NCBI GenBank assembly: GCA_030615605.1
Contig: JAUWYY010000008.1
Span: forward strand, 26,323 to 90,322
DNA: 64,000 bases
Origin: a bacterium
Lineage (GTDB): Bacteria; Armatimonadota; Zipacnadia; Zipacnadales; Zipacnadaceae
Direction of reading: 5' to 3'
Positions 2,965 through 8,894 of this stretch are shown one piece after another. Positions within the stretch are counted from its first letter, which is position 1; every line of letters begins with the position of its first letter. The notes beneath the pieces were generated by a model. That model was not told the origin of the DNA. It searched no databases and worked only from the letters and a program-made list of their open reading frames with translations. The translations under genes and the position numbers were made by a program.

Positions 2965-2974
2965 TTGATTGCCG

Positions 2975-4162
2975 ATGACTGAGGACCAGATTCTCGACAT
3001 TGATCTTGAAGAGGGGCGGTATCATCGGCTGGAGCTGATTCCCTGGTGGGATCAACAGCGGTTGTTTGACGCGCGGGTGATGGTGGTGGGCGCCGGGGCG
3101 CTGGGCAACGAAATCCTCAAGCAACTGGCCCTGCTGGGGGTGGGTAATATCTATGTGGTGGATATGGATACTATCGAGGAGTCTAACCTGACCCGGGCGG
3201 TGCTGTTCCGCGAGAAAGACGAGGGCCAGCCCAAGGCGGAGGTAGCTGCCCGCGCGGTGACCGAGCTGAATCCGGACATCAAGGTGCAGAGCTTTGTGGG
3301 GAATGTCGTCTATGACCTGGGCGAAGGCATCTTTCGGGATATGGATATCGTGCTGGGCTCGCTGGATAACCGTGAAGCGCGCGTGGCGATAAATCAGAGC
3401 TGCTGGAAGCTTAACAAGCCGTTTGTTGACGGAGCCATTGAGGTAATCCAGGGCGTGGCGCGCATCTTCTGTGGGCCGGAGGGGCCGTGTTATGAGTGCA
3501 CGATGAACGAGAAGGACTACGAGCTGCTCAGCCAGCGCCGCTCCTGCGCGATGCTGTCTCGTGACGATATCGTGCGGGGGCACATACCAACCACTCCGAC
3601 CACCGCTTCGGTGATTGCTGGAGTTCAAACTCAGGAGGCCATCAAGTGGCTACATCGCGACCGGGAAATGCCGCTGCTGCTGGGTAAAGGGTTTGTCTAC
3701 AACGGGTTTAGCAATGAGTCGTATATCATCGAATATCAGCGCCGCGCGGATTGCCCCGCTCATATCACGCTGCCGCCGCTCCAGGACCTGGACAAGTCGG
3801 TTGATACGGCCACAGTTGGCGAGATGCTGGAGCTGGTCAGATCGGAGGTCGGCCCCGAGGCGGTGCTGGAGTTTGAGCGGGAACTGTGCATCGGGCTGTA
3901 CTGTCCGAACTGTGACGAAAGCGAGCCGGTATTCCGCTCACTGGGCAAGCTGCGCGAGGCGGAGGGGCGCTGTCCGCACTGTCACGAACTGCGCGACCCG
4001 GAACTGACCCACGCTATCTATGGCGATGAGGATTATCTGGATAGAACGCTGGCGGATATGGGCCTGCCGCCGTACGATATTGTGATTGGCCGGGACGGGC
4101 TTGAGGTAGCAGCCTTCGTATTGGCTGCCGACCGGGAGACTGCCGTGGGCTGTCTGGCTTGA
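2975..4162 (+). CDS. E1-like ubiquitin-activating enzyme (ThiF/UBA family) with C-terminal Zn ribbon
   Basis: VVGAGALGNE, DMDTIEESNLTR, LDNREAR, CYEC...CPAH Zn site, candidate catalytic Cys in RRSCA, C-terminal CPNC/CPHC. Confidence 0.92.
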   Translation: MTEDQILDIDLEEGRYHRLELIPWWDQQRLFDARVMVVGAGALGNEILKQLALLGVGNIYVVDMDTIEESNLTRAVLFREKDEGQPKAEVAARAVTELNPDIKVQSFVGNVVYDLGEGIFRDMDIVLGSLDNREARVAINQSCWKLNKPFVDGAIEVIQGVARIFCGPEGPCYECTMNEKDYELLSQRRSCAMLSRDDIVRGHIPTTPTTASVIAGVQTQEAIKWLHRDREMPLLLGKGFVYNGFSNESYIIEYQRRADCPAHITLPPLQDLDKSVDTATVGEMLELVRSEVGPEAVLEFERELCIGLYCPNCDESEPVFRSLGKLREAEGRCPHCHELRDPELTHAIYGDEDYLDRTLADMGLPPYDIVIGRDGLEVAAFVLAADRETAVGCLA

Positions 4163-4183
4163 TGATTCTGTTCTTAGGGACGA

Positions 4184-5218
4184 TTGACTATGAATGATGA
4201 GAAGCGTGCTAAAACTGACGACAATGATCAGGTTGGCATCTCTCTGCAGCCGCCGCGAGAGTCGTCTGGCTACGGGGGGAGAGATGTAGTGGTCATGGTG
4301 GCCGAATCGGTGCTGGAGGAGGTGCGCCGCCACGGCCAGCAGGATACCTCCCGCGAACAGGGCGGCATCCTGGTGGGCACGGTAGCCTCCAGTCAGGACA
4401 AGGTTTACGTGAATGTGGAGGCAGTGATAGCTGCGCCCCAGACCCGAGCAAAGCGCACCAGCATCACCTTCACTCACGATAGCTGGGCACATATCAATCA
4501 GGTCAAAGATAGCGACTATCCCGACCAGGACATTGTGGGCTGGTATCACACCCACCCGGGTTTCGGGATATTTCTGTCTGACTATGATACTTTCATCCAT
4601 CGCAACTTCTTCCCGGCGGCCTGGCAGGTGGCGTTGGTAATTGATCCGCTTTCCGACGAGTCCGGTTTCTTTGTTTGGAAAGGCAACGAAATTATCCCGC
4701 GCAAGCAATACAATGTATTCAGTCCGCTGGTTGCGCCCGCCAAGCCGGTGGCCGCAGAGCCGGCCCCGCTGCCGGCCGACCTCGTGGCTCCACCGATGCC
4801 CCGGCGGGCCAGCATTGTTACGGTGGTGGTCCTGCTGGTGCTGGCCTTGCAGGTAGTTACGCTTCTGGCGCTTTTCCGGAAGCCGGCCGCGATTGTGGAG
4901 TCATCGGGTCAGCCTGCCCAGTTGGCAGCGCAGGTCGGCAGACTGGAACAGCAGATTACCGAAACGCAGGCACGGGTCGAGGAATTGGACAAGGCCCGGC
5001 CAGCGGCCAGTAGCGCTGAGGCTGGTCCTGAGTATGAGTGGTATGAAGTCAGATACGGCGACAGTCTGTGGAAGATTGCCAGGGAGCACTATGGCGACGG
5101 CACAAAGTACACAATTATTGCCGCTGAGAACGGAATCGCACTTCCCAGGGCAATAATCAATCCCGGGCAGAGACTACGGTTGCCGAATGTGGCAAAGGAG
5201 AGCCGTGGCGCCGAATGA
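4184..5218 (+). CDS. JAB/MPN+ (JAMM) isopeptidase fused to TM helix, coiled coil and LysM domain
   Basis: EQGGIL...GWYHTHPGFGIFLSDYD (E...HxHx7Sx2D); TM IVTVVVLLVLALQVVTLLALF; LysM YEVRYGDSLWKIAREHYG...INPGQRLRLP. Start could be ATG 4190. Confidence 0.9.
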   Translation: MTMNDEKRAKTDDNDQVGISLQPPRESSGYGGRDVVVMVAESVLEEVRRHGQQDTSREQGGILVGTVASSQDKVYVNVEAVIAAPQTRAKRTSITFTHDSWAHINQVKDSDYPDQDIVGWYHTHPGFGIFLSDYDTFIHRNFFPAAWQVALVIDPLSDESGFFVWKGNEIIPRKQYNVFSPLVAPAKPVAAEPAPLPADLVAPPMPRRASIVTVVVLLVLALQVVTLLALFRKPAAIVESSGQPAQLAAQVGRLEQQITETQARVEELDKARPAASSAEAGPEYEWYEVRYGDSLWKIAREHYGDGTKYTIIAAENGIALPRAIINPGQRLRLPNVAKESRGAE

Positions 5219-5945
5219 CGACAGCGCAGAACTGGAGATCGAGATTGAGCAAGCGCCTGCCACGGAGCTGGCGCAGGGGCCTGATCCCGCCGACGAGGAA
5301 GGGCGGTCCCTGCTGAAACTGGGACAGCCTGGCGGGCAGCAGCGTGTTTTCATGGCTTATGCCTGCCTGAAGCAGATGCTGGCTCATACCCAGCGGAATC
5401 TGGACGCGGAAATTGGCGGGATTCTGCTGGGACGGATCTTTCGCAGCGATAAGGGAATCGTGACAATTCTGACGGAGGCGGTGGCGGCGGTTCGCACTGA
5501 TGCCGGCCTGGGCCATGTGACCTTCTCACACGAGACCTGGGCCGACCTGTACCAGTATCTGGAGTCGCTGGCCACTGATACCGATATCGTCGGTTGGTAC
5601 CACACCCATCCCGGGTTGGGTGTGTTTTTCTCAAGACAGGACAGGTTCATCCAGGAGAATTTTTTCGGCGGGCCCGGACAGGTCGGCATCGTGGTTGATC
5701 CCGTCGCGGATAGTGTCGTGCTGTTTATGTCTCATGAGGGCGAGACGGCCGCCTGCAATGGCTTTTGGGTGACGGGTGCCGAGGAGGATGTGCCGGCTGC
5801 CCGCCAATTGATAGCCAAACTTACCTACGCAAAGCAAGAAGCGGCCCGAGGCGGCTGGCTGGAGAGTTGGGGCCAGAGGTTACAGGGGGCGTTGGGCCGC
5901 AAGCAGCCTGCCGAGCAGCCGGTGGCCGACGATGAGGAAGCCTAG
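5205..5945 (+). CDS. JAB/MPN+ (JAMM) isopeptidase
   Basis: EIGGILLG...GWYHTHPGLGVFFSRQD; GTG 5205 preceded by AAGGAG. Confidence 0.9.
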   Translation: MAPNDDSAELEIEIEQAPATELAQGPDPADEEGRSLLKLGQPGGQQRVFMAYACLKQMLAHTQRNLDAEIGGILLGRIFRSDKGIVTILTEAVAAVRTDAGLGHVTFSHETWADLYQYLESLATDTDIVGWYHTHPGLGVFFSRQDRFIQENFFGGPGQVGIVVDPVADSVVLFMSHEGETAACNGFWVTGAEEDVPAARQLIAKLTYAKQEAARGGWLESWGQRLQGALGRKQPAEQPVADDEEA

Positions 5946-5952
5946 ATAGACT

Positions 5953-6480
5953 ATGAATGCAAGACTGCGCCGACTGTATGCTGACTATCAACAGGTCCAC
6001 AGTGACTTTGCGGGGCATCCCTATGTTGATGTCGAGCCGATTCGGGGTAATCCCCCCGAGGCCTACCGGATCAGCTATCATATAAAGGGCCTGGAGCTGG
6101 ATCAGGCCAGCAATCGCCCCCGGGTCAGAACCGAGCATATGGCCACTATTTACCTGCATCGCGACTACCCGCGCGAGAAGCCCAAGTGCGTGCTGGAGAC
6201 GCCAATCTTCCATCCGAATTTCGGCTCCTACATCTGCATTGACGACTACTGGGCGGCGGGAGAGACACTGGCCGATGTCATCATCCAGATCGGGCAGATG
6301 ATTCAGTATCAGAGCTACAATCCCAAAAGTCCGCTGAATGCGGTGGCCGCGCGCTGGTGCCAGCAGAATGAGCATCTCCTTCCCATCGGCGATGCTGATC
6401 TGTACCAGCCGGAGCTGGATATTGATTTGCTTGGTGATGGCAAGCTGGGTGAAGAGGAGATCGAAATAGAGTTGTTATAG
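5953..6480 (+). CDS. E2-like ubiquitin-conjugating enzyme (UBC fold)
   Basis: N-terminal RLRRLYADY helix, DYPREKP, TPIFHPNFGSYICID (HPN motif plus catalytic Cys), NPKSPLNAVAA. Confidence 0.92.
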   Translation: MNARLRRLYADYQQVHSDFAGHPYVDVEPIRGNPPEAYRISYHIKGLELDQASNRPRVRTEHMATIYLHRDYPREKPKCVLETPIFHPNFGSYICIDDYWAAGETLADVIIQIGQMIQYQSYNPKSPLNAVAARWCQQNEHLLPIGDADLYQPELDIDLLGDGKLGEEEIEIELL

Positions 6481-6523
6481 TGCCGGCGCTGAGTCGTGCC
6501 CAGCGGAATATCGCAGGACACAG

Positions 6524-7270
6524 ATGGAGTTGTCCAGAGTGCGTTGCCCTTACTGTCATGAGAATATCACAGTCCAGGGCCGGTTTTGTCCGAAGTGTGG
6601 CGACCAGATATTCGGGCGGCCGGTTGCGCGTGGTGGCACGGAGCCGTCGCAGCCGGCCTCTACGCCCAGCTCGTGGCAGGCTCCTTCTCCGCAAGCCGGC
6701 GGCGATGTTCTCGACATTGAGTTGGAGGACGCTGCTGAGGCTGTCGGTGCTTCAGATAATGCCGTCGGCCAGATGTGTCCGTTCTGCCGGTTTCCCATTA
6801 AAGAAGGCGAAGAGGTAATCACCTGCCCGGACTGCCAGACCACACTGCACGCCGACTGCTGGCGAGAGAATGACGGATGCACCACCTACGGCTGCTCCAG
6901 CTCGCCCCAGGCAGCAGCCGTTCGGCGTACTACGGGGCAGGCTGCGCGCGGTGGCCGCAGTTGGCCTGGGTTCGGTGGCACAACGCCGGGGACGATACCG
7001 ATGCCGCTGGGCGCTCGCCAGTTGCTCGAAGCCGAATTCGAGGGCCAGGGCACCAATGTGCTGCTGTTCGCCATCCTGCAGATTCTCTTCTGCGGGGGAT
7101 TGCTATCAATTATTGCCCTGGCCTGGAGTATATCGCTGCTTTCGCAAATGAAGCGGTTCCAGCTCCGCACCTCAAGGGGGCGGAACAAGGCGATTGCGGC
7201 TGCAATTATCAGTGGGATAGTGACTCTGGCATGGCTTATAGGGATTGCCTGGCCGCTTATCGGCAGGTAG
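6524..7270 (+). CDS. Zn ribbon + prokaryotic RING finger + C-terminal TM helices (candidate membrane-anchored E3 ligase)
   Basis: N-terminal CPYC..CPKC; RING-like CPFC-x12-CPDC-x4-HxxC-x6-CxxxxC; C-terminal hydrophobic helices resembling DUF4190. Confidence 0.8.
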   Translation: MELSRVRCPYCHENITVQGRFCPKCGDQIFGRPVARGGTEPSQPASTPSSWQAPSPQAGGDVLDIELEDAAEAVGASDNAVGQMCPFCRFPIKEGEEVITCPDCQTTLHADCWRENDGCTTYGCSSSPQAAAVRRTTGQAARGGRSWPGFGGTTPGTIPMPLGARQLLEAEFEGQGTNVLLFAILQILFCGGLLSIIALAWSISLLSQMKRFQLRTSRGRNKAIAAAIISGIVTLAWLIGIAWPLIGR

Positions 7271-7301
7271 TGGCGGTAGTCTTCTTGGGGGCCCACATCG
7301 T

Positions 7302-7928
7302 ATGGGTTACGAAGACCCTGAAATCGAAATCAGCTCAACCCAGTCGCCGGAGCCGCTTAAGCGCCGGCGGCCGGGTCCGCCGCTTGCTGTAGTCGGTGAG
7401 GTAGGCGCGCCGGCCGGGAAAGGGGCGATCTTTCTGCATCTGGAGGCCATCGGGGCGATAGTTGATTCCTTGCCCGGCCAAGAGCAAATGGAGGTAGGCG
7501 GGCTGCTGGTCGGCAGGGAGTGTGAGGATGAGGCGGGCGTCTATCTGCTGGTAGCTGGCGCGATTCCGGCCCGGCAGGCAAGAGGCACCTCGGTGTCGGT
7601 GACTTTTACTCACCAGACCTGGAATCAGTTGTCTGCTGAAAAAGTAAGCCGCTACCCGGATCAAGCGATCGTCGGCTGGTATCATACTCATCCGGGGCTG
7701 GGTGTGTTCCTTTCCGAGCGCGACCTGTTCATCCACCGCAATTTCTTTGCCGACAGCACTCACATAGCTGTGGTGATTGACCCGTCCAAGTTTGCCTGGG
7801 GCATATTCTACTGGCAGGACTCAGACCTGGTAGCTGCGCCGGGTTGTTACATATATGGGGAGCCTGCCGAGAAACATGAGCGACTGTCTGAACTACTGCC
7901 CCGCTACCAGCCCAGCCATATGCAATAG
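7302..7928 (+). CDS. JAB/MPN+ (JAMM) isopeptidase
   Basis: EVGGLLVG...GWYHTHPGLGVFLSERD; ATG 7302. Confidence 0.9.
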   Translation: MGYEDPEIEISSTQSPEPLKRRRPGPPLAVVGEVGAPAGKGAIFLHLEAIGAIVDSLPGQEQMEVGGLLVGRECEDEAGVYLLVAGAIPARQARGTSVSVTFTHQTWNQLSAEKVSRYPDQAIVGWYHTHPGLGVFLSERDLFIHRNFFADSTHIAVVIDPSKFAWGIFYWQDSDLVAAPGCYIYGEPAEKHERLSELLPRYQPSHMQ

Positions 7929-7938
7929 GTCGTCGGGT

Positions 7939-8010
7939 GTCGTTGCGCCTGTCGTTGTACCTGTCGTTAGACCTGTTGTTCTACCTGTCGTTTTGCCTGC
8001 CGTTCCTTGT
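7939..8010. repeat. Six imperfect 12-bp tandem repeats (consensus GTCGTTnnACCT)
   Basis: gtcgttgcgcct/gtcgttgtacct/gtcgttagacct/gttgttctacct/gtcgttttgcct/gccgttccttgt. Confidence 0.85.
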
Positions 8011-8102
8011 GTCTGACTTATCGTGAAGGTTTCACCTCCCACCGAGGAGAAGAGTTGACCAGTGGCGTAAGCATCCAGAACTGAGGAGGAAAGGATATCA
8101 AA

Positions 8103-8894
8103 ATGACAATTACGAGGTATCTACCGATAATTGTTGCCTTGCTGATGAGTGGCGCAGTATGGGCGCAGGAAGGGGCGGCGCCACCTGCCAGCGAAGAATT
8201 GCCCGCTGAGGAAACACAACCGGTAGCCAAAGACAGGGTGACAGTGCAGACTATCACATCGTACCTGGACCGAATGAACTACGTCTACAAACTGGACAAG
8301 TCGGTAAAGGTGCCCGAGATTGAGCTGCTTATGCGCGGAGACAATGCCAATTACCAACTGCGCATATTCATTGACGACCCCCGCAAGGTCGTCTACATGT
8401 GCATAAATCGGCTGATGACCATTCCTGATTCACATCCCCGCAAGAGTGCTGTGCTCCAGAGGTTGATGGAACTTAACTGGGAGCTTTTAATTGGCAAGTA
8501 TGAATGGGACAAAAGCGACGGGGAGGCGCGGCTCTCCTACACATTCAGTACGGAAAACGGCCTGGGCTATGAGGCTTTCGTGGCGTGCTTCCAGCTCCTG
8601 GTGCTGACCGCCGACCGAGACTATCCCAAGCTTATGAGACTGATATGGGCCCCAGAGGAAAAGCCAGCCGAGCCGCTTCCTGTGGGTACGCCTGAAGAGG
8701 GTGCCAAAGAGAAGGTTACTGCGCCCAAAGAAGAGACTCCTGCCAAGGAAGAGGCTCTCTCTAAGCCAGAAGCTCCGACCAAGGAGGAAGCTCCCCCCAA
8801 GGGAGAAGCTCCCTCCAAGGAAGAAACTGTAGCCGAGCCAGAAGCTCCAGCCCAGGAAGAAGCCCCCTCCGGACAAGAGACCGAGGCGGAATAG
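8103..8894 (+). CDS. Exported YbjN-like (T3S-chaperone fold) protein with acidic/Pro repeat tail
   Basis: Signal peptide (AVWA/Q); core LMELNWELLIGKYEWDKSDGEARL resembles the YbjN family; C-terminal 6-aa KEEAP-like repeats. Confidence 0.6.
   Translation: MTITRYLPIIVALLMSGAVWAQEGAAPPASEELPAEETQPVAKDRVTVQTITSYLDRMNYVYKLDKSVKVPEIELLMRGDNANYQLRIFIDDPRKVVYMCINRLMTIPDSHPRKSAVLQRLMELNWELLIGKYEWDKSDGEARLSYTFSTENGLGYEAFVACFQLLVLTADRDYPKLMRLIWAPEEKPAEPLPVGTPEEGAKEKVTAPKEETPAKEEALSKPEAPTKEEAPPKGEAPSKEETVAEPEAPAQEEAPSGQETEAE

Follow-up and report, generated by a model that had tools for sequence, protein, structure and literature searches.

What is a peptidase of the deubiquitinase type doing in the same polypeptide as a peptidoglycan-binding LysM domain, with a transmembrane helix between the two? 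The question is raised by a gene that we call JAB1, found in a 64,000-nucleotide stretch of an Armatimonadota genome (family Zipacnadaceae; GenBank assembly GCA_030615605.1, contig JAUWYY010000008.1, positions 26,323 to 90,322 of the forward strand), which we refer to as the window. An original prediction, made from the sequence of the window, saw in this gene an N-terminal JAMM domain, a Pro-rich linker, a single transmembrane segment, a coiled coil, and a C-terminal LysM domain, and went on to propose a deubiquitinase tethered to or regulated by the cell wall. Our analysis gives the LysM domain a humbler part. JAB1 is probably a membrane-anchored isopeptidase, specific for a ubiquitin-like protein (Ubl), that belongs to a conserved Ubl conjugation system operating on the cytoplasmic side of the inner membrane. 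We favor an isopeptidase at the membrane because the nearest folds of JAB1 (Rpn11, CsRpn11, CSN5, AMSH, and BRCC36) and its operon context both point in that direction.

The gene runs from 4190 to 5218 on the plus strand, as do all features of JAB1 given below, and encodes 342 residues from ATG 4190. The window's list of open reading frames (ORFs) carries it as 4184-5218 (+), a 344-residue frame opening at TTG 4184, and the ATG two codons further in is probably the true start because the public copy of the protein (P0001, 100% identical) has 342 residues; that numbering is used here unless stated otherwise. In 344-residue numbering, Pfam places JAB at residues 37-141 (3.2e-10; 40.3 bits, cut-off 22.5) and LysM at residues 287-334 (1.7e-10; 41.1 bits, cut-off 20.9), the latter match spanning model positions 1-43 of the 43 in PF01476. 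Prok-JAB also exceeds its curated cut-off (2.8e-09), and the NCBIfam model "peptidoglycan-binding protein LysM" matches at 4e-12, under its cut-off. An AlphaFold2 model built on a 60-row alignment has a mean predicted local distance difference test score (pLDDT) of 81.8, with its best part in the JAMM/MPN+ domain (residues ~30-178, mostly above 90; positions 4277-4723). The linker that follows (4724-4813) ends in an Arg-Arg pair directly ahead of the membrane helix; it is 28% Pro over residues 176-207 of the 344-residue numbering and mostly below a pLDDT of 50 over residues 183-204. The predicted transmembrane helix comprises residues 209-229 (4814-4876) and coincides with the only hydrophobic segment of the protein (Kyte-Doolittle 2.92, peak at 209-227). 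Beyond it lie a second helix at 243-268 (4916-4993) and the LysM domain (residues 285-332; 5042-5185), modeled over residues 282-332 as the beta-alpha-alpha-beta order of E282-286, H293-301, H304-313, and E328-332, with pLDDT of about 90 or more in these blocks. The architecture first described is thus confirmed. As to the coiled coil, residues 241-270 are hydrophobic at 6 of 9 a/d heptad positions in the best register, which makes helix 243-268 a plausible candidate for a short one, and any oligomer formed through it would be hypothetical. The pairing of JAB with LysM is no chance juxtaposition, to judge from the Pfam marks, because both occur together in 46 of the 120 homologue clusters listed, down to about 33% identity.

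The peptidase domain looks catalytically complete. Residues E56, H120, H122, S130, and D133 are invariant in 60 aligned homologues; HxHx7SxxD lies at nucleotides 4547-4588, with E56 as the upstream Glu, and the full pattern E...HxHx7SxxD is matched by regular expression in 103 of 103 JAB ORFs in the loci of relatives. These loci come from a search of one genome per species, in which at least 597 stretches encode a relative; the best 80 (numbered from L001) were analyzed by searching their ORFs with the window's proteins, and counts over them are lower bounds, since many loci end at contig ends. Foldseek pairs the JAB1 model best with Rpn11 (5u4p_B, 2.6e-11), followed by the Rpn11 homologue of Caldiarchaeum in complex with ubiquitin (6fnn_A, 1.5e-10, TM-score 0.77 on the target), with CSN5 and AMSH at about 1e-8 and BRCC36 also among the best structural matches. 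The model and the alignment place JAB1 among JAMM peptidases of the Rpn11/CSN5/AMSH structural class and show that none of the catalytic residues is missing, so the deubiquitinase label of the original prediction holds for the class, with the activity itself predicted.

JAB1 is one gene of a same-strand Ubl-E1-E2-RING-JAB operon. The genes for the Ubl, E1, JAB1, JAB2, E2, RING protein, and JAB3 follow one another on the plus strand with short gaps or overlaps, and the five Pfam signatures of such a system (YukD/ubiquitin, ThiF, UQ_con, Prok-RING_1, and JAB) lie adjacent on that strand. They comprise a YukD-like Ubl of 89 residues (1557-1826; Pfam YukD 2.7e-14), an E1 of the ThiF family (2969-4162; 1.5e-56), an E2 (UQ_con; 5953-6480) whose HPN...C active-site signature, with the HPN triad and catalytic Cys, reads FHPNF...YIC, and a RING E3 (6524-7270) composed of a zinc ribbon, Prok-RING_1 (1.5e-11), and DUF4190-like C-terminal hydrophobic helices, predicted to be transmembrane, at residues 179-197 and 223-241. 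Ahead of the Ubl lies an HtrA/DegS-like serine protease of the trypsin fold without a PDZ domain (551-1444, +). Among the 80 loci, an E1 is present in 71, a Ubl in 70, an E2 in 67, a RING protein in 64, and the protease in 44, commonly in the order protease, Ubl, E1, JAB, then RING and E2. With a JAB, a RING E3, and a protease that are all predicted to be membrane anchored, the system as a whole appears to be centered on the membrane.

This context bears on whether the JAMM domain of JAB1 could act together with LysM on peptidoglycan peptides or other non-Ubl substrates. LysM domains are usually attached to enzymes that act on the wall, and certain tail proteins of phages contain MPN domains. 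Fuchs et al. (2018, PMC6043591) also list "bacterial lysM-associated JAMM sequences" as a class of their own; the class has the same domain pair as JAB1 and is named, in the part of that article that concerns it, solely as left out of a cluster map, with no topology, operon context, or function given there. A role in wall cleavage is nevertheless highly improbable. The transmembrane helix stands between JAB and LysM, and there is no signal peptide; the gene sits together with the Ubl, E1, E2, and RING genes in 55 of the 80 loci; the nearest folds are isopeptidases for ubiquitin and Nedd8; and in a paralogous family the Ubl domain itself is fused to a JAB-TM-LysM module, where TM denotes the transmembrane helix.

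That family is best seen against the Ubl of the operon. Across 26 sequences from several phyla, the mean column identity of the 89-residue Ubl is 75%, which suggests conservation almost as strong as that of ubiquitin. The C terminus is fixed as ...LRLQPEITAG, with A88 and G89 invariant in all 26, so a Gly suited to conjugation is present throughout. YukD-like Ubls are reportedly described, in the abstract of the 2011 work of Burroughs, Iyer, and Aravind, as proteins that such systems may conjugate. Thirty-eight of 70 Ubl ORFs, the window's type among them, end exactly at AG; the other 32 run on for 1-24 residues, and a processing peptidase would therefore be needed in many lineages. In the fusion protein P0121, from a related Armatimonadota genome (L082:6937-8286, -), residues 20-102 align with the Ubl profile in hhalign at 94.7% probability (E 6.2e-08), ahead of a JAB-TM-LysM arrangement like that of JAB1. 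The fusion proteins, which in related Armatimonadota genomes have 390-450 residues, form 89 clusters at E <= 1e-10 that cover about 95% of the query, some of them named at source "EsaB/YukD family protein" or "LysM peptidoglycan-binding domain-containing protein". Their Ubl domain differs at its end, which in P0121 reads ...EIAAA versus ...EITAG in the operon Ubl. In the one locus examined, no E1 or E2 lies near P0121, whose neighbors are housekeeping genes, and the search with this query found no fusion copy in the window's own genome. We take the fusions to be a paralogous family that strengthens the link of the JAB-TM-LysM module to this family of Ubls.

How JAB1 would sit in the membrane follows from its one helix. 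Because a single transmembrane helix separates them, JAB must be on one side of the membrane and LysM on the other if that prediction is right, as had been proposed. LysM domains are extracytoplasmic. With no signal peptide on the JAB domain, and with partners such as the ATP-dependent E1 in the cytoplasm, the sensible topology is N-in/C-out, with JAB cytoplasmic and LysM periplasmic. The anchor is also what orthologues have in common: at least one JAB with a transmembrane helix after the JAMM motif is found in 69 of the 80 loci. The tails beyond that helix are another matter. Pfam detects LysM in 15 of the 63 JAB tails of 40 residues or more, belonging to Armatimonadota, a WS1 genome, three Bacillota, and one Actinomycetota; the remaining 48 have no Pfam domain above cut-off and appear by eye to be Pro-rich or basic low-complexity sequence or long helical stretches, and seven further tails are merely 7-26 residues long (L039, L065, and L045, for example). 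Since the anchor is kept in so many loci while LysM is confined to so few tails, the transmembrane helix is, on this comparison, the constant feature and LysM one lineage's addition, an ectodomain dispensable across orthologues, plausibly serving there as a lineage-specific tether to peptidoglycan.

The same tails weigh on the most ambitious part of the original prediction, which had JAB1 as a one-component receptor through which the state of the envelope (damage, phage entry, or division) would act on Ubl removal. In its general form, LysM would sense peptidoglycan or muropeptides, the heptad helix and transmembrane helix would alter oligomeric state or position and thereby switch the cytoplasmic isopeptidase, and the state of the envelope would set the level of Ubl conjugates. 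Several things speak for such a receptor: the opposite-side topology is the sensible one, a heptad helix beside the membrane helix could mediate ligand-dependent oligomerization, ectodomains that vary by lineage are common in receptors, and the HtrA/DegS-like protease of the operon comes from a family known for envelope-stress sensing, with its HtrA/DegS-type NCBIfam matches lying under their cut-offs. Against it, the orthologues do not keep a ligand-binding ectodomain together with the output domain, given that three-quarters of the longer tails are without a recognizable domain and seven are little more than stubs. The AlphaFold2 model, moreover, places no known transducer module between the transmembrane helix and JAB, only about 30 disordered Pro-rich residues, which would be a poor conduit for a conformational signal, and nothing was found in this analysis that points to ligand-dependent activity. 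Regulation by the cell wall was thus not upheld, and we consider a receptor of this kind unlikely. The dispensable ectodomain and the disordered connector without a transducer module are what lead us to read LysM as an anchor and not as a gate.

A further alternative arises from the other two JAB genes of the operon. JAB2 (5187-5945, +) and JAB3 (7245-7928, +, with a possible start at ATG 7302) encode soluble MPN+ paralogues, and all three JABs of the window are MPN+ and catalytically intact. JAB1 could then be a scaffold that recruits JAB2, JAB3, and the ligation enzymes to a membrane site fixed by peptidoglycan and leaves most of the catalysis to its partners, much as MPN proteins pair in the proteasome lid. 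The end of JAB1 is shared with JAB2 over 32 nucleotides from ATG 5187 or over 14 from the in-frame GTG 5205. GTG 5205 follows an AAGGAG sequence, and the shorter overlap that it would give is also that of the relatives L001, L003, and L004, which suggests that the two genes are translationally coupled and that JAB2 starts later than the listed ATG. Such coupling would suit a scaffold, as would the placement of JAB2 and JAB3 in separate, conserved clades that are confined to Armatimonadota loci and well supported in a tree of the JAB domain (SH-aLRT, the Shimodaira-Hasegawa-like approximate likelihood ratio test, 96 for each). This tree came from a rapid search, with SH-aLRT as its sole measure of support; it included 105 of 106 JAB-domain rows (three from the window, the others from the loci), one ORF having been dropped for having fewer than 130 domain residues. 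The short motif common to the termini of all components, described below, also fits a scaffold. Yet JAB1 keeps all of its catalytic residues, and in most other phyla the transmembrane-anchored JAB is the sole JAB of its operon and so must be the active peptidase there. An interaction between JAB1 and JAB2 is itself hypothetical, and a mainly structural role for JAB1 seems to us improbable.

If JAB1 is the isopeptidase that we favor, its parts can be assigned as follows. The cytoplasmic, Rpn11-like JAMM domain would remove the YukD-like Ubl from conjugates made by the E1, the E2, and the membrane RING E3, and where the Ubl has a C-terminal extension, it would presumably also trim the precursor. 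The flexible Pro-rich linker could give the domain reach along the membrane, and the single transmembrane helix would be the conserved localizing element. In this lineage, the heptad helix and LysM may additionally tie the enzyme to peptidoglycan, positioning or immobilizing it without serving as a required sensor of ligand.

Several observations weigh against this assignment. Its support is computational throughout, drawn from sequence and predicted structure. The main deconjugase could be any of the three intact JABs in the window, in which case JAB1 could be mostly scaffold in this lineage, and the window's own Ubl, ending at AG, does not require trimming at its C terminus. Receptor families, too, typically combine a conserved output with ectodomains that vary. 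The positive-inside rule does not settle the orientation, as Lys and Arg within 15 residues of the helix, summed over the 15 LysM-bearing orthologues, number 29 on the N side versus 32 on the C side. Finally, the JAB tree is compatible with a single gain of LysM as well as with repeated gains: the label changes 6 times on the best tree, of which well-supported branches force 1.

A separate thread connecting the components is a short acidic motif, Φ-x-Φ-x-L, with the core [DE]-I-[DEST]-[IL], that occurs in the termini or linkers of nearly all operon proteins of the window. It is found in the N termini of E1 (residues 10-14), JAB2 (17-21), and JAB3 (26-30), in the RING linker (64-68), in the tail of the protease (277-281 and 293-297), and at two sites of the C-terminal tail of E2 (156-160 and 169-175, with three overlapping matches). 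JAB1 has a weak copy, VGISL (residues 15-19; 4232-4246), in its low-confidence N terminus (pLDDT 51-64), which is clearer at the same place in L006, L009, L029, L044, L066, and L071. The motif occurs 9 times in 1,938 residues of operon proteins versus 2 times in 16,377 residues of other long ORFs of the window, and none of 2,000 shuffles reached 9 matches, a count that is partly circular because the pattern was defined on these proteins. Orthologues offer a more independent view, with overlapping matches counted and related loci not independent of one another. In Armatimonadota-like loci without the three closest relatives (L001-L003), where the JAB match is 44% identical or less, there are 43 matches in 18,067 operon residues versus 10 in 26,068 neighboring ones (Fisher 3e-09), and in Bacillota and Actinomycetota loci 27 in 15,891 versus 3 in 9,877 (p = 0.001). 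The loci of other phyla are not enriched (8 in 78,576 versus 27 in 153,027). In E2, the copy just past the UBC domain is conserved in position, and the protease terminates in D-L-S-D-[IV]-[DE]-I-[TD]-L in Armatimonadota; its counterpart in Clostridia is D-F-D-I-D-[IL], a related sequence. By these alignments, the position of the motif is conserved in orthologues from Armatimonadota, Bacillota, and Actinomycetota and not in those from other phyla.

A candidate reader of the motif, the Ubl, was examined against the tail of the protease. The protease has a signal-like N terminus and a C-terminal transmembrane helix (residues 247-265), followed directly by an Arg/Lys-rich stretch, and its tail would therefore be cytoplasmic, a mirror image of the arrangement in JAB1. 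In the window's protein, the tail is 32 residues long, Arg-rich and then acidic, has no lysine, and ends in the shared motif. Residues H63, D93, and S163 are invariant in the orthologue alignment, and the extreme C terminus is conserved. This topology is unusual for the HtrA/DegS family in its lack of PDZ, its C-terminal transmembrane anchor, and its cytoplasmic tail. A predicted complex of the Ubl with the 32-residue tail scored 0.39 versus 0.01 for the best of 3 controls, with runs agreeing in at least 89% of contacts and a partner pLDDT of at least 53; of 157 solved complexes, 116 attain the mark used for such predictions, as do 2 of 215 mismatched pairs, and scores of 0.60 or under account for 18 of the 157 solved complexes and for both mismatches that pass. 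We regard the Ubl as a reader of the protease-tail motif as a lead with weak support from the model. On a larger scale, a deubiquitinase tethered to peptidoglycan, a RING E3 in the membrane, and a periplasmic HtrA-like protease with a cytoplasmic tail that docks the Ubl could be wired through this SUMO-interaction-like motif into a relay across the envelope, in which Ubl conjugation and the state of the envelope or peptidoglycan control each other; we hold this to be a rather doubtful, speculative extension.

Operons with this set of genes have been recognized before. Bacterial Ubl-E1-E2-RING-JAB operons were predicted by Burroughs, Iyer & Aravind 2011 (Mol Biosyst 7:2261), according to the passages devoted to them in PMC4197634, PMC3417536, and PMC7159879; Actinobacteria, Planctomycetes, and Acidobacteria are named there as hosts, the operons are called uncharacterised in 2014 (PMC4197634), and a role as protein-level elements resembling restriction-modification is proposed (PMC3417536). 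The components encoded in the window are the same, including a Prok-RING_1 E3 and a Ubl of the YukD type, and the hosts agree with those of our loci. With its three JABs and LysM, the Armatimonadota form is a lineage variant. JAB1 is, by these comparisons, a real and recurrent architecture within a conserved, membrane-centered Ubl system of that predicted class. Our literature search, which most subscription journals lay outside, turned up no experimental study of JAB-TM-LysM proteins or of this RING-type operon in bacteria.

The closest characterized relative in fold is CsRpn11 of Caldiarchaeum subterraneum, for which precursor processing and deconjugation are reported in the sections of PMC6043591 that describe it (PDB 6FNN, 6FJU). 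CsRpn11 has the same JAMM/MPN+ fold and is likewise encoded beside a Ubl, E1, E2, and RING E3, but is a soluble archaeal protein without transmembrane helix or LysM; the window's operon further differs from that of Caldiarchaeum in its YukD-like Ubl ending in AG, its three JABs, its membrane-anchored RING protein, and its periplasmic protease. Rpn11, CSN5, AMSH, and BRCC36 share fold and catalytic motif with JAB1. Rpn11, CSN5, and BRCC36 work in MPN+/MPN- pairs within large complexes, and AMSH is recruited peripherally to membranes. In contrast with these eukaryotic isopeptidases, JAB1 is predicted to be a bitopic membrane protein in its own right, and the three paralogues of the window are all MPN+. 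The antiphage systems Bil and CBASS, with their BilC and Cap3 peptidases, and the Bub operons also combine a JAB with a bacterial E1, E2, and Ubl, and these are the bacterial systems that have been studied by experiment. Membership of the window in any of these (Bil, CBASS Cap2-Cap3, or Bub) was considered and rejected. As laid out in the system descriptions of PMC11601603, they are defined by an E1-E2 fusion (Cap2), an ISG15-like double beta-grasp BilA, or the DUF6527 protease BubE, Bub has E2-E1 or JAB-E1 fusions, and no RING E3 is listed for their operons; the window, unlike them, has separate E1 and E2 genes, a single-domain Ubl of 89 residues, a RING E3, and three membrane-anchored components. 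PADLOC returned weak, domain-level matches, the best for JAB at 1.9e-09 and BilD at 1.4e-06 for the E1.

A eukaryote-like set of Ubl, E1, E2, RING E3, and Rpn11-like deubiquitinase has thus been known in bacteria from sequence since 2011, and our literature search returned no paper naming a target of these operons. In Armatimonadota and in some Bacillota and Actinomycetota, the deubiquitinase is, as the LysM domain predicts, also tied to the cell wall. The membrane layout points to membrane or envelope proteins, and to the protease tail, as candidate substrates, and the shared motif is a concrete target for peptide-binding experiments. Should the link to the wall prove regulatory, it would represent a new means by which bacteria adjust protein tagging to the state of their envelope; should it be only an anchor, JAB1 would still be a useful handle on the spatial organization of a minimal ubiquitin system.

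The 80 loci come from Armatimonadota (the closest from Candidatus Zipacnadia), Acidobacteriota, Planctomycetota, Chloroflexota, Bacillota, Actinomycetota, and others; L052 belongs to a strain of Tautonia sociabilis, a carrier of the operon that is in culture. Distribution within the Armatimonadota is patchy, with a match at E <= 1e-10 in 25 of 201 sampled genomes and with families ranging from full (4 of 4, 8 of 9) to empty (0 of 18, 0 of 16). Genes for FHA-domain and GYF-domain proteins are interspersed in loci of Acidobacteriota and Planctomycetota, and FHA is fused to E2 in those of Clostridia. Accessory genes vary at L083, L021, L032, L017, and L029; L083, which belongs to a related Armatimonadota genome, encodes a second E2 along with five RING paralogues that lie in tandem or close by, and L009 has a HicB-like antitoxin gene between E1 and JAB.

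Within the window, a gene for a 363-residue protein (1873-2964, +) separates the Ubl from the E1. It has a PADLOC match to PDC-S11 (1.2e-30), which makes it a candidate defense gene, and a weak NucS-like nuclease N terminus. The gene looks like an insertion outside the core operon because it is absent from the relative L001 (JAB-LysM protein 85% identical), where the Ubl directly precedes E1. A divergent cluster of MoxR AAA+, DUF58, and transglutaminase-DUF4129 genes lies directly upstream of the operon (3897-8146, -, in L081, the stretch upstream of the window) and was rejected as a conserved partner, being near the operon in 2 of the 80 loci (L001 and L049); holA lies upstream as well. Downstream of JAB3, a secreted YbjN-like protein (8103-8894, +) has a long repetitive C terminus rich in Pro, Glu, Ala, and Lys and a homologue in the same position in L003 and L004 only. 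The ORFs downstream look, from their sequence, like housekeeping genes of arginine and pyrimidine biosynthesis.

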